Shown: positions 61,244 to 64,000 of the stretch, piece after piece
How positions within the stretch are numbered: the stretch's first letter is position 1
Layout of the letters: each line of letters begins with the position of its first letter
From: an uncultured Pseudomonadota bacterium
GTDB lineage: Bacteria; Myxococcota_A; Bradymonadia; Bradymonadales; Bradymonadaceae
Direction of reading: 5' to 3'
Assembly: GCA_913057905.1 (NCBI GenBank)
Contig: CAJXPB010000007.1
Location: forward strand, 57,807 to 121,806
DNA length: 64,000 nt
Program-made: the position numbers and the translations under genes
The notes under the pieces: generated by a model
Database searches by the model: none
Told to the model about the DNA's origin: nothing
What the model saw: the letters and a program-made list of their open reading frames with translations, nothing else

Positions 61244-61966
61244 TTACTCGGCGGCCGAGTCGGTGAGTTGACCAGCCGGGGCTCCCTCTTCTTTCCCTTC
61301 CAGAAGCCGTCCAAACTCGCTTCCAAAGCGGATGGCGAAATTGATGCTGCGACGCACCTCGGTACGCCGCGACGCCCGCATCAGGTCGAAAAGCCCGGAG
61401 GTCTCCGGGCCCTCCCGGCCTACTTCGGCCATCGCCTCTCCCATCGTTCCGACCATCTTTACAGTATCGCCCTCAAAGACCCCCGATTCGATCAGAGCGT
61501 GGAAATGTTTGTCCTGCACGAGTTTCAGTAGCTTCTCGGCCGTCAACGCCATTGATTCAGTCAATTCCTCGACATCGATGCCCCGCTGGGCGGCCTCGGC
61601 GACCATCGAATCGAAGACATCGACGACCATCGCGATCGAACCGGGCAACTGATCGAGCATCTGGATCGTCTCTTCGATCCGATCCGACCGATCCAACGCC
61701 AGTTGCAAGGTCTCGAGGACCTGCGGCTCGGTTAGCTTCACCAGCACGGGAAGCAGGGCATTGACGCGGTCGTCGACGCTGGCGCCCCGCTCTTCGGCCC
61801 GTCGCGCGAAATCATCGGCCACGTTGGTGAATGTAGCGACGGCATCGGGCGCCTGGTCGAGTACCTCGACAACCCGGTCGAGTTTGTCTTCAATGCGCTC
61901 CATCCGCTGCTCGAGCGCCTCCAGGCGCTCGTCAGCAGAGGAGGCATCGGCGAGTGAGGAGACCAT
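61244..61966 (-). CDS. helical protein with an internal duplication, possibly DUF1641-like; co-transcribed with sqr
   Basis: 240 aa with GGAGG 8 nt upstream. It has two similar halves (VEVLDQAPDAVATFTNVADDFARRAEERGASVDD vs IQMLDQLPGSIAMVVDVFDSMVAEAAQRGIDVEE). The DUF1641 assignment is from memory of sqr/NADH-dehydrogenase neighbourhoods and has not been searched. Confidence 0.65.
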   Translation of the reverse strand: MVSSLADASSADERLEALEQRMERIEDKLDRVVEVLDQAPDAVATFTNVADDFARRAEERGASVDDRVNALLPVLVKLTEPQVLETLQLALDRSDRIEETIQMLDQLPGSIAMVVDVFDSMVAEAAQRGIDVEELTESMALTAEKLLKLVQDKHFHALIESGVFEGDTVKMVGTMGEAMAEVGREGPETSGLFDLMRASRRTEVRRSINFAIRFGSEFGRLLEGKEEGAPAGQLTDSAAE

Positions 61967-62368
61967 CAGAAACCTCCGGTAGCTTCAGGGAACAAGTCAC
62001 ACTTCTCGGCTGCACCCGATCTAACCTGCAATTCCCTTACCAGCCCGGCTCATGCCCCGGTTCGCGGGATTCCCGGAAGGTTGAGACGCGCAGATGTTGC
62101 AGATGAAACACCGCGTTGAAACGAAGTGAGATGGAGCGGCGTGTGGGGGATATCTAGCCGACTGGAGATTCCGACACGGTCTCTGGTTGGTCTGCGAACG
62201 TTGGTCACCCCGGTCTCCCTCGACGCCCTGAACCACAGGGCGACTCGGTCGAACCGGGCGATCACGCGGCGTGTCGCGCCTGCGGCACGCCGCCGCGGGA
62301 TAGGCAAAGGCATTGAGGATGCCGTAAGCGTCCGCCCACCCACGCCACAGAGAGGGTGGGAGGGAGGA

Positions 62369-62394
62369 TAGGACATCGGAATGGGGATGCGGAC
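62369..62394. repeat. 26-nt direct repeat copy 1: TAGGACATCGGAATGGGGATGCGGAC
   Basis: Identical to 62437..62462, with a 68-nt period. It is also the reverse complement, with one mismatch over 20 nt, of 62582..62601. Confidence 0.9.
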
Positions 62395-62436
62395 TGCAGC
62401 AAACCGACATCCACGTTCTTCACGTCAGAGAGAAAG

Positions 62437-62462
62437 TAGGACATCGGAATGGGGATGCGGAC
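62437..62462. repeat. 26-nt direct repeat copy 2 (forms one arm of the long hairpin)
   Basis: Identical to 62369..62394. Confidence 0.9.
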
Positions 62463-62601
62463 CGAGGGCTGGCGAGCTGAGTTTGTGTTTGCTCTAAGTC
62501 GTGAAACGTAGGCGTACCCGGAGGGTACGTCGAGGCTTCACGACAACGAGCAAACCGACCTCAGCCGCCAGACCGACGGGAGCATCCCCATGCCGATGTC
62601 C
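62439..62601 (-). other. 163-nt rod-like imperfect inverted repeat directly downstream of tRNA-Gly (candidate structured RNA, oversized terminator or MITE-like element)
   Basis: Stems read from the sequence: 62439-58/62582-601 (20 bp, 1 mismatch); a 10x10 internal loop; 62469-81/62560-71 (12 bp plus a bulge); 62488-94/62548-54 (7 bp); 62498-505/62537-44 (8 bp); 62513-19/62523-29 (7 bp, 3-nt loop). The structure is certain; its function is unknown. Confidence 0.7.
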
Positions 62602-62606
62602 AAAAA

Positions 62607-62679
<73 letters not shown>

Positions 62680-62690
62680 GAGCCACCCTG

Positions 62691-62719
62691 TAAATAATCG
62701 GTGGCGACCCCCGTGTCAA
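62691..62719 (-). promoter_or_regulatory. sigma70-type promoter for tRNA-Gly (TTGACA-17 nt-TATTTA)
   Basis: On the minus strand the -35 TTGACA is at 62719..62714 and the -10 TATTTA at 62696..62691. The -10 ends 12 nt before the mature tRNA 5' end. Confidence 0.55.
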
Positions 62720-62726
62720 GGGCGTC

Positions 62727-63215
62727 TCATTCCTGTTGCGGTTGGTCTTGTTTCTGGTTGTTCTGGTCCCGCTGGATCGAGCGAAAGTCCAGTTTATTCA
62801 GTTGTTCCTCGGGGATTTCGACCTTTTCGATCTCGAGGTTGTCCTGAGCTCGAATCGCTTTCAGATCCTCGGGATTGACGGTCGGCCTCGAATGTTTGGG
62901 CGACCCGTCGCCCGGTTTCGCGGTGTTGATGCCGCTGTCGGACGATGCGGTCTTGTTGTCGCGGTCCATGCGCACGACCTCGACTTCGGTAGGAGTCTCC
63001 TTGGGCTCTTTCGCCTCCGTGGACTCTTCGTCCTTCGAAGGCGAATCATCCCTGGCCGTCGGGGTCGGTTTCTGGGTCTCCGACTCCTTGTAGGAGTCAA
63101 ACTGGACCTTTTCGGATTCGGATTCAGGGACTGAATCCGAGCCACCCGAGGCGATCAGATACGCGCCTCCTGCGGCGACCACGGCAACGACAACTGCAGC
63201 AATGAACTTGTTCAT
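62727..63215 (-). CDS. hypothetical membrane-anchored low-complexity protein
   Basis: 162 aa. N-terminal helix MNKFIAAVVVAVVAAGGAYLIA, then a Ser/Glu/Lys/Pro/Thr-rich region and a Gln-rich tail. The gene is visibly less GC-rich than its neighbours. Confidence 0.6.
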   Translation of the reverse strand: MNKFIAAVVVAVVAAGGAYLIASGGSDSVPESESEKVQFDSYKESETQKPTPTARDDSPSKDEESTEAKEPKETPTEVEVVRMDRDNKTASSDSGINTAKPGDGSPKHSRPTVNPEDLKAIRAQDNLEIEKVEIPEEQLNKLDFRSIQRDQNNQKQDQPQQE

Positions 63216-63293: not shown

Positions 63294-64000
63294 TCAGTTT
63301 GCTTCTTCGAAGTCGGCATCGATGACGTCGTCGTCATCGTCGTCGGAGTCGGACTCGTCGCCTCCGGCCTCGCCGGGGGTCGGTCCACCCGCACCGGGGC
63401 CGGCCGCTCCGGGGCCAGCAGCACCGGGTCCGGCCGCTCCAGGTCCGGCGGCGCCGGGACCTGCTGCTCCGGGGCCAGCAGCGCCAGGACCGCCGGCGGC
63501 GTCGCCGTACATCTCCTGGGTGATGCTGTGCAGCGTCTCCTCGAGGTCCTCCATCAGGTCCTCGAGTTCATCGTGGCGGTGCTCCTCGACCGCTTCGTCG
63601 AGGGCGTCGACCTTCTCCTCGATTTTCTCGCGATCTTCGTCGGAGAGATTCTCTCCGTGCTCGTCGATGAAGCGTCGGCCGGAGTGGGCGGTCGCATCGG
63701 CCTCGTTGCGAAGCTCGATGCGCTCCTTTTTCTTCTTGTCTTCCTCACGGTGTTTTTCGGCCTCGTCGACCAGGTCTTCGATCTCCTCTTCGGAGAGACC
63801 GGAGGACGCCTCGATGCGTATCTCCTGCTTCTTCCCGGTCGCTTTGTCCTCGGCCGAGACGTTCAGGATGCCGTTGGCGTCGATGTCGAAGGTGACCTCG
63901 ATCTGAGGCGTGCCACGCGGCGCCGGCGGGATACCTTCCAGGTTGAACTTGCCGATGGTCTTGTTGTCCTCGGCCATCGGACGTTCGCCCTGAAGCACAT
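63294..64000 (-). CDS. dnaK: molecular chaperone DnaK, C-terminal part (gene runs off the right edge)
   Basis: ...[62 protein letters not shown]... is the Hsp70 substrate-binding-domain signature. The tail is ...[13 protein letters not shown]. The M at 63998 in the ORF track is not the true start. Confidence 0.96.

Follow-up and report, generated by a model that had tools for sequence, protein, structure and literature searches.

Organization of the tRNA-Gly locus

The analyzed stretch of DNA, 64,000 nt long and referred to below as the window, carries on its minus strand a tRNA-Gly(GCC) gene followed by a T6 run and then by a long rod-like hairpin (Table 1); all three lie where a preliminary description of the sequence had placed them. 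The tRNA gene does not encode CCA and has a T as its discriminator base. Folded alone, the hairpin forms 62 pairs, its left and right terminal arms being paired with a single mismatch and its apex reading CGUACCC-UCC-GGGUACG. A 253-nt stretch that comprises the hairpin and the downstream repeat folds at -129.4 kcal/mol, compared with -76.1 +/- 4.6 kcal/mol for shuffled sequences (z = -11.5; none of 200 shuffles equaled it). The open reading frames that cover the hairpin are shadow ORFs only, and direct inspection of the sequence revealed no likeness of the basal stem GGACATCGGCATGGGGATGC to the 3' end of tRNA-Gly. The promoter previously suggested for the tRNA gene was called near-consensus, a wording that holds for the perfect -35 box (62714-62719) and the 17-nt spacer, but not for the -10 box TATTTA, which agrees with the consensus in three of six positions and, being weak, is the reason why a consensus scan made no promoter call.

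Table 1. Features identified at the tRNA-Gly locus of the window, listed in the direction of the minus strand
Feature	Position	Strand	Basis
Promoter-like site 5' of tRNA-Gly: TTGACA, 17-nt spacer, TATTTA	62691..62719	-	sequence
tRNA-Gly(GCC)	62607..62678	-	ARAGORN; Rfam RF00005, 68.3 bits
T6 run (discriminator + 5 T), T-rich trailer abutting the left end of the element	62602..62607	-	sequence
Full copy of the ~162-nt hairpin repeat (probably MITE-like), 163 nt	62439..62601	-	model R1: 154 bits, E = 2e-37; fold
Left terminal arm, 5' half of the basal stem, GGACATCGGCATGGGGATGC	62582..62601	-	inverted repeats I1, I3
Conserved, mostly unpaired motif CUCCCGUCG, lower internal loop, 5' side	62574..62582	-	columns of 59-copy alignment A3
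Apical module: CCUCGACG, 6-bp stem with UCC loop, GCCUACG; best-conserved part of the family	62507..62535	-	found other copies
Conserved motif CCUCGGUCCG, lower internal loop, 3' side	62458..62467	-	alignment A3
Right terminal arm, 3' half of the basal stem, GCATCCCCATTCCGATGTCC	62439..62458	-	inverted repeat I1
Pyrimidine run TACTTTCTCTCT after the element	62427..62438	-	sequence
Putative stump of a second, internally deleted copy	62369..62411	-	direct repeats D1, D3

Probable remnants of further copies

Beyond the hairpin, a 26-mer of its distal arm (62437-62462) is repeated exactly 68 nt further on (62369-62394; direct repeat D1), as noted before; the 20-mer core of this sequence has three occurrences against zero expected. 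The 10-mer repeat reported alongside it is likewise real and forms part of a 14-nt repeat (62398-62411 and 62549-62562, 93% identity). The mutually exclusive pairing envisaged for the proximal arm exists on paper, with the predicted fold of the 253-nt stretch joining this arm to the distal copy of the 26-mer. In the downstream repeat, a 5'-arm piece, GATGTCGGTTTGCT (62398-62411, 14 nt), is fused to the final 23-26 nt of the 3' arm (62369-62394), and the extra 26-mer is presumably what a second copy in tandem left behind after internal deletions. Other loci likewise have partial copies next to full ones (L047, the tRNA-Asn locus, L201, and L134). In the genome that carries the window, hereafter the source genome, a 5' half-copy sits between tRNA-Asn and a full copy; the related genome G010 has a nested or duplicated arrangement behind tRNA-Leu, a 3' half-copy after the copy behind tRNA-Arg, and a mini-copy of 48 nt at L134. 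At two independent loci, the 5' half-copy breaks off immediately ahead of CTCGACG, with a T-run and then a full copy behind it.

Distribution of the repeat family

A BLAST search of the source genome with the element returned three more places, matched via the apex alone. All three are long hairpins of the same build, each directly after a T6-7 run, and they lie behind tRNA-Ala(CGC), behind the tmRNA gene and behind a detached 3' fragment of tRNA-Leu(CAA). A covariance model, R1, was derived from an alignment of eight copies, in which 30 of the 44 predicted pairs have compensated changes. With R1, the source genome yielded seven full and three partial copies; five of these ten start at most 9 nt from a tRNA-type 3' end (tRNA-Gly, tRNA-Ala, tmRNA, tRNA-Asn, and the old tRNA-Leu end), and a sixth lies 225 nt behind tRNA-Thr. 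In related genomes, the hairpin recurs behind tRNA-Thr, tRNA-Met, tRNA-Leu, and tRNA-Arg, as well as at sites that lack a tRNA gene. The copies are 155-168 bp long, apart from one of 183 bp that contains an insert.

Within the same bacterial family (Bradymonadales-like Myxococcota), R1 matches occur in 25 of 43 genomes and in 11 of 21 genera, with a distribution that is patchy by genus; carriers have from one to at least 60 copies per genome (R1, E <= 0.001), the counts being capped by how many candidates were scored and, in draft genomes, being lower bounds, and 18 of the 43 genomes have none. At least 41 copies were found in genome G022. Many copies are located at contig ends. Across the whole class, 28 of 113 genomes have R1 matches, and nearly all of them belong to this same family. 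A scan for the exact pattern across 185,579 species, each represented by one genome, returned 64 stretches, of which 60 are in records titled Bradymonadales, Bradymonadaceae, Persicimonas, Myxococcota, Myxococcales, or delta proteobacterium; the other four were rejected by R1. The preliminary description had named many dispersed copies as the sign of an ordinary repeat family rather than a dedicated RNA, and many dispersed copies are what the search produced.

In a search of the window against Rfam 15, the tRNA alone was matched, with nothing else up to E = 10, while five other copies of the element hit generic plant miRNA hairpin models only, far below threshold (56 bits vs. 168; 26 vs. 268). 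The element has no match in plasmid and phage collections, and the literature that we searched contains nothing on repeats of such kind in Bradymonadales or Myxococcota; the repeat family is apparently undescribed.

Conserved motifs and covariation of the fold

The family was characterized by a model-based alignment (A3) in which 18 genomes are represented by 59 copies. From the 5' side, its members are composed of a basal stem of 19-20 bp with subfamily-specific sequence, the motif CUCCCGUCG, a variable helix, the motif GGCUGAUUU pairing with AAAUCA, and more variable helices; these lead to an apex that consists of (C/A)UCGACG, a 6-bp stem with a 3-nt loop, and CGCCUGC, and the return arm has CUCGGUCCG immediately before the basal stem. 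At the DNA level, the subterminal motifs of the element are CTCCCGTCG and CTCGGTCCG, and the TCGACG and CGCCT of the apical module are nearly invariant, with a stem that covaries between AU/UA and GC/CG. The terminal arms of 19-20 bp have zero to two mismatches. These arms differ by subfamily and the internal loops are conserved, a pattern that speaks against a MITE, as MITEs usually have conserved termini rather than a conserved interior. We rejected the possibility that the variable basal stem was taken over from a host terminator, since it has a length of 19-20 bp in every copy and is enclosed by the target duplications. On visual inspection, a K-turn in the lower internal loop was dropped as well: neither strand offers a fitting GA/AG pattern and 3-nt bulge.

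Compensated changes are present in 42 of the 44 modeled pairs. In the alignment, 88.6% of cells are paired, compared with 31-45% when partners are slid by one to three columns, and none of 500 shuffles reaches any of five measures. The fold can also be followed at one orthologous locus, a comparison that had been proposed earlier as a check. Two genomes of different genera, G041 and G007, have copies behind tRNA-Arg(TCT) with the same junction (GTGC-TTCTT..TT-GATTC), the same distinctive variant of the apex, and the same downstream flank (GGTCTTTT.AATCG); the two copies therefore derive from a single ancestral insertion. Both copies keep the fold: the 11 differing pairs comprise eight that are compensated on both sides, one wobble, and two broken pairs. 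This compensated change reflects either selection on the hairpin in place or, at the DNA level, a correction between its two arms. An automated pair mapping for two paralogous copies of the source genome gave many 'broken' pairs, which we took as an alignment artefact, both copies folding fully.

The element is directional. R1 scores the window copy at 154 bits on the minus strand vs. 63.6 bits on the plus strand, with a similar gap in every other copy. The reverse-complement strand folds better in 58 of 58 distinct copies, by a mean of 16.5 kcal/mol. G-U and A-C combinations in the 44 modeled pairs (86 vs. 63) show no strand excess, and the better fold of the reverse strand is due to its purine-rich loops, not to the modeled pairs.

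Location behind tRNA genes and terminators

Fourteen of the 59 sampled copies start 3-15 nt past the 3' end of a tRNA or tmRNA, all of them in the orientation of the tRNA (14:0), and six more come after a terminator-like hairpin with a T-run. The recurrent junction is composed of a tRNA or terminator stem, T4-8, and then the left end of the element. In the source genome, tRNA genes frequently have a T3-5 trailer, including those with no element behind them. The compensated change at the orthologous site, taken with the 14:0 orientation, could indicate a function in the transcript and to that extent argues against plain parasitism. The young copies of G041 are not linked to tRNA genes. When 30 of the 56 tRNA loci of G022 were scanned with 1.5-kb flanks, copies appeared at one locus only, and one further copy of this genome lies 6 nt behind a tRNA gene; the element is no general tRNA accessory. 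Among dispersed copies, the upstream gene is co-oriented in 19 cases and opposed in 11. This absence of a strong bias relative to neighboring genes fits an insertion at the DNA level. The simplest reading of the tRNA linkage is a preference for A/T-rich targets combined with long survival in harmless trailers.

Marks of transposition

The complete genome G041 contains 11 near-identical copies of 160 bp with 19-bp inverted ends and the common end GATTCGTGTGTAAGAA, a search for which gave 23 matches vs. none in the control. Eleven copies, nine of G041 and two of G022, were tested for flanking direct repeats; 9-10 of them (at least eight of the G041 and one of the G022 copies) have perfect repeats of 6-7 bp, AT-rich and located just outside the inverted ends. 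Examples are AAGATT, AATTTT, AATCTT, ATGGTT, ATTGTT, ATAATT, ATGTTT, AATGTT, and ACCCTTG, and the repeats fit A-W-N-N-T-T; a 6-bp match at a fixed register is expected by chance in 1 of 4096 cases per copy. Read on the strand of the element, the duplications of young copies contain 37 T vs. 23 A, and this slight T-bias would also set the orientation of the element at a T-run. T is enriched in both flanks of the sampled copies, with 25-35 T among 57 at each of positions -1 to -6. At the window locus, the flanks (TTTTTT upstream vs. TACTTT downstream) agree at four of six positions and form no clean target duplication; the pyrimidine run TACTTTCTCTCT may represent a T-rich target duplication whose second copy has decayed.

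Prokaryotic MITEs are elements of approximately 50-500 bp, for which a related autonomous IS with the same ends supplies the transposase. In the complete genomes G041 and G022, we found no longer element with the same 15-16-nt ends that could represent a parent IS, and the stray ends present in 431 kb of loci are deletion derivatives rather than IS ends, with no adjoining transposase. The target duplications and the lack of a longer element with the same ends therefore point to a non-autonomous element. Filled and empty sites were compared for nine G041 insertions with the same-genus genome G019, where the coding flanks alone align and no alignment crosses the junction, and for the window locus with the tRNA-Gly locus of the same-genus genome G003, where the tRNA alone aligns; no pair could be aligned because the intergenic DNA has diverged too far. 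The orientation of the G041 copies showed no obvious pattern by position that would indicate a replication-strand bias.

Origin of the hairpin and alternative explanations

The family consists of small non-coding elements with terminal inverted repeats, with flanking direct repeats in the G041 and G022 copies, and with dispersed copies of varying number. We consider it likely that the window hairpin is a resident copy of a non-autonomous MITE-like hairpin repeat, approximately 160-165 bp in length, of Bradymonadales-like Myxococcota. Of the explanations offered by the preliminary description, a MITE/REP-type repeat family is the one borne out by the dispersed copies in the source genome and its relatives and by the target duplications. 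In the mechanism that we propose, a transposase acting in trans would make staggered cuts at A/T-rich hexamers, which in genomes of 60-65% GC would lie mainly in the T-tracts of terminators and in the U-rich trailers that follow CCA-less tRNA genes; copies in harmless sites would persist, and copies elsewhere would disappear. The source genome shows no young burst, and the old copies that survive there would for this reason be linked mostly to tRNA genes. The window copy would have inserted into the T-run behind tRNA-Gly(GCC). Compensated changes keep the rod fold of inserted copies, probably either through selection as RNA in read-through transcripts or through correction between the DNA arms, and a selected RNA rod would be a candidate barrier that separates the dnaK/tRNA-Gly unit from the sqr operon downstream. 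The hairpin may act as a terminator or insulator, and there is no need to assume a separate sRNA function.

A dedicated structured RNA would account for the locus in another way, as a stable species of about 160 nt that shares the transcript of the tRNA or has a promoter of its own and is freed by the tRNA-processing enzymes, with the other copies as gene duplicates. The strong covariation, the conserved unpaired motifs, the compensated change at the orthologous tRNA-Arg site, the uniform orientation behind tRNA genes (14:0), and the strand preference of the model (154 vs. 64 bits) would all suit such an RNA; however, we regard it as improbable, given that young copies with target duplications lie at unrelated AT-rich sites, gene ends included, that genera of one family range from zero to at least 60 copies with none in 18 of 43 genomes, that just two tRNA loci of G022 were seen with copies, and that the orthologous tRNA-Gly locus of a same-genus genome is without the element. 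Moreover, the strand co-transcribed with the tRNA would be the worse-folding one, and Rfam offers no match; the earlier suggestion of a 6S-like or other known sRNA found no backing in this search (RF00013 included), where only the tRNA was hit at E <= 10. Perfect target duplications of 6-7 bp, a hallmark of DDE-type transposases with their staggered double-strand cuts, and the position of young copies away from helices and tRNA genes also make quite improbable a different mode of mobility, in which the hairpin would travel as single-stranded DNA or RNA, have its loops read by a host single-copy enzyme as REPINs are read by RAYT, and aim at a helix with a T-run; single-strand HUH enzymes (IS200/IS605, RAYT) leave no target duplication. 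This mode would nonetheless explain why the conserved parts are internal loops and not termini, why the strands fold asymmetrically in 58 of 58 copies, why no IS with matching ends was found in G041 and G022, why the left end lies exactly against T-runs after a helix, and why at two independent loci a 5' half-copy ends before CTCGACG with a T-run and a full copy behind it. An actual REP/REPIN-RAYT system, where the RAYT gene is flanked by REPs, was rejected as an identity for the element, which is ~162 nt long with target duplications vs. units of 20-40 nt without them.

Least credible, to the point that we give it almost no weight, is the reading that the tRNA-Gly locus evolved an oversized terminator or a recombination (att) site of its own, unrelated to other sequences, as dozens of homologous copies exist elsewhere. 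The place directly behind a tRNA gene with a pyrimidine-rich run after it would agree with such an origin, tRNA 3' ends being classical integration sites, and the source genome does have one island at tRNA-Leu. That island, however, duplicated 55 nt of the tRNA itself and not the hairpin. An att site is recognized by a direct repeat of the tRNA 3' end that brackets the insert together with an integrase, and the window copy is flanked by neither an integrase nor a tRNA-end repeat; an att site or a tRNA-targeting integrative element was accordingly rejected, with no tRNA-Gly 3' repeat and no integrase-like ORF nearby, and we see no evidence for the recombination site once suggested here, the tRNA-Leu island repeat being a tRNA 3' end and not the hairpin. 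Intrinsic terminators have a GC-rich hairpin with a U-tract immediately after it. A scan of positions 61900-62900, which is blind to stems enclosing a long inner structure, called no terminator, and the tail UACUUUCUCUCU is no U-tract, so that the unusually large terminator of the preliminary description would be at most a side effect; in the relatives L055 and L057, U6-7 directly follows the stem.

A further reading goes beyond a MITE-like repeat and seems to us unlikely. It describes the element as a structure-constrained module in which a host factor reads the conserved asymmetric loops (CUCCCGUCG / CUCGGUCCG and the CUCGACG apex), which is placed one-way at a helix with a T-run behind tRNA, tmRNA, or terminator, and whose rod, as RNA or single-stranded DNA, is kept by selection. 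The rod would then be, for example, a transcription barrier or a processing signal, and the family would represent a new type of hairpin-recognizing mobile element or a domesticated regulatory repeat.

As a MITE-like repeat, the odd-looking locus is explained by ordinary biology, and a false sRNA or 6S-like candidate is removed. The interest, which is modest, lies in the unusual strictness of the fold conservation and in the preference for tRNA/terminator junctions; the family offers a natural case for asking why long hairpin repeats retain their fold after insertion and why they accumulate behind tRNA genes. For Bradymonadales, a predatory and little-studied lineage of Myxococcota, it is now defined by the model R1, consensus motifs, and a target preference, and it is useful as an annotation marker and for explaining assembly breaks.

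Comparison with known bacterial repeats

By its features, the family belongs with the prokaryotic MITEs, which are small elements with inverted ends, target duplications, AT-rich targets, and stable hairpin transcripts (PMC10969869), and it is nearest in style to ERIC and the Correia elements. Departures from the usual MITE are the conserved interior with variable ends, the one-way placement at T-runs, and the compensated evolution in place. ERIC/IRU sequences of Enterobacteriaceae and Vibrionaceae are ~127-bp imperfect palindromes classed as MITEs, with copy numbers of 30 to 711 that vary widely between related genera (PMC10969869). The Bradymonadales repeat resembles them as a non-coding, intergenic, whole-length imperfect palindrome of 100-200 bp with no known parent IS, a copy number that varies between related genera, and transcripts predicted to fold as long hairpins. 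Unlike ERIC, with which it has no sequence similarity and which comes from another phylum, it has AT-rich target duplications of 6-7 bp, is placed one-way behind tRNA/tmRNA genes and terminator T-runs, and is conserved in its internal loops and apex, not in its ends. The Correia elements of Neisseria are MITEs of 100-155 bp that likewise have terminal inverted repeats, a target duplication, a transcript hairpin, and dispersed intergenic copies able to affect their neighbors (PMC10969869); they differ in duplicating TA, in having promoters and an IHF site, and in their conserved ends of 26 bp, whereas the ends of the Bradymonadales repeat vary by subfamily with compensated changes.

REP/BIME/REPIN elements, which are mobilized by RAYT, a Y1 HUH transposase (PMC2817692), are comparable as extragenic palindromes without their own transposase that often occur as tandem or inverted doublets, persist at the 3' ends of transcription units, and form a diverging population of copies within a genome. 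REP units measure 20-40 nt and lack a target duplication, in contrast to the 160 nt and 6-7 bp duplications of the Bradymonadales repeat. SPRITE of Streptococcus pneumoniae is a repeat that resembles a rho-independent terminator (PMC3049150, PMC10969869). It is similarly a small dispersed repeat with a terminator-like look that may act as such, and elements of this kind cluster and insert into one another; there is no sequence relation, and the window copy is without a proper U-tract, whereas some of its relatives (L055 and L057) have one.

Element copies in and beside tRNA and tmRNA genes

The MITE-like hairpin element recurs in and beside tRNA and tmRNA genes of relatives (coordinates are collected in the table below). 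In G022, one of the complete relatives' genomes, the anticodon loop of a degenerate tRNA-Arg(TCT) duplicate (locus L198) holds a reverse-oriented element copy, whose removal would leave the 7-nt loop CUUUGGA, and a second, decayed copy follows the same duplicate. In the relative G010, a tmRNA or tRNA-Ser gene begins 2–6 nt from the left end of each of three copies (L106, L113, and L110), which are directed away from the adjoining gene. At L110 and L113, two or three head-to-head copies occupy the entire spacer between two tandem tRNA genes. The downstream tRNA promoters must be located within or beyond the elements. Several dispersed G010 copies (L112, L114, and L121) adjoin the ends of open reading frames; in some cases, the TGA within the element end (GACTCCTGAG) may supply the stop codon of the abutted frame.

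In the source genome, the intact tRNA-Leu(CAA) gene is followed, 5.56 kb downstream, by an exact second copy of its terminal 55 nt, the hallmark of island integration at a tRNA 3′ end. No obvious integrase was found among the ORFs of this putative island. The T6 run and a decayed hairpin-element copy are still present at the old, displaced tRNA 3′ end.

A second subfamily and other repeats

The source genome also carries a second element subfamily with the ends GAATGGGTGG and GAATCGCCGA. In this subfamily, the CCCGTCGCGAG motif is located on the 3′ arm, not on the 5′ arm, and the apex module is the one also present in the window copy. Tandem 21-nt units (n = 3–4) immediately follow the tmRNA-linked hairpin copy of this genome. 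In the complete genome G041, the copies at L086 and L091 lie in the same AAGATT site of a different repeated sequence, therefore this genome has a second repeat family that was struck twice by the element. Within the window, the C-terminal tail of DnaK contains approximately seven tandem GPGAA repeats followed by an acidic end.

Locations of element copies and associated repeats
Feature	Genome	Position	Remark
Element in pseudo-tRNA-Arg(TCT)	G022	L198 ~1590-1830 = C1 ~3708580-3708820	reverse orientation
Element copies by tRNA/tmRNA 5′ ends	G010	L106; L113 301-465; L110 709-872	
tRNA-Leu(CAA) 55-nt repeat	source	L003 ~1575-1630 = C1 ~294607-294661; C1:300195-300279	
Second-subfamily copies	source	C1:483095-483330; C2:77472-77634; C1:1434357-1434512; C11:29664-29825	
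21-nt tandem units GGGAACGTCGAGTGCCACTC	source	L004 1620-1700, contig C4	after tmRNA-linked element copy
Repeated sequence hit by element	G041	L086, L091, 60 nt upstream of element	...CTATTAAGGCAATTAAGATT, before it CGACCAC.GG.G....CC
DnaK GPGAA repeats	source	window 63400-63520	- strand
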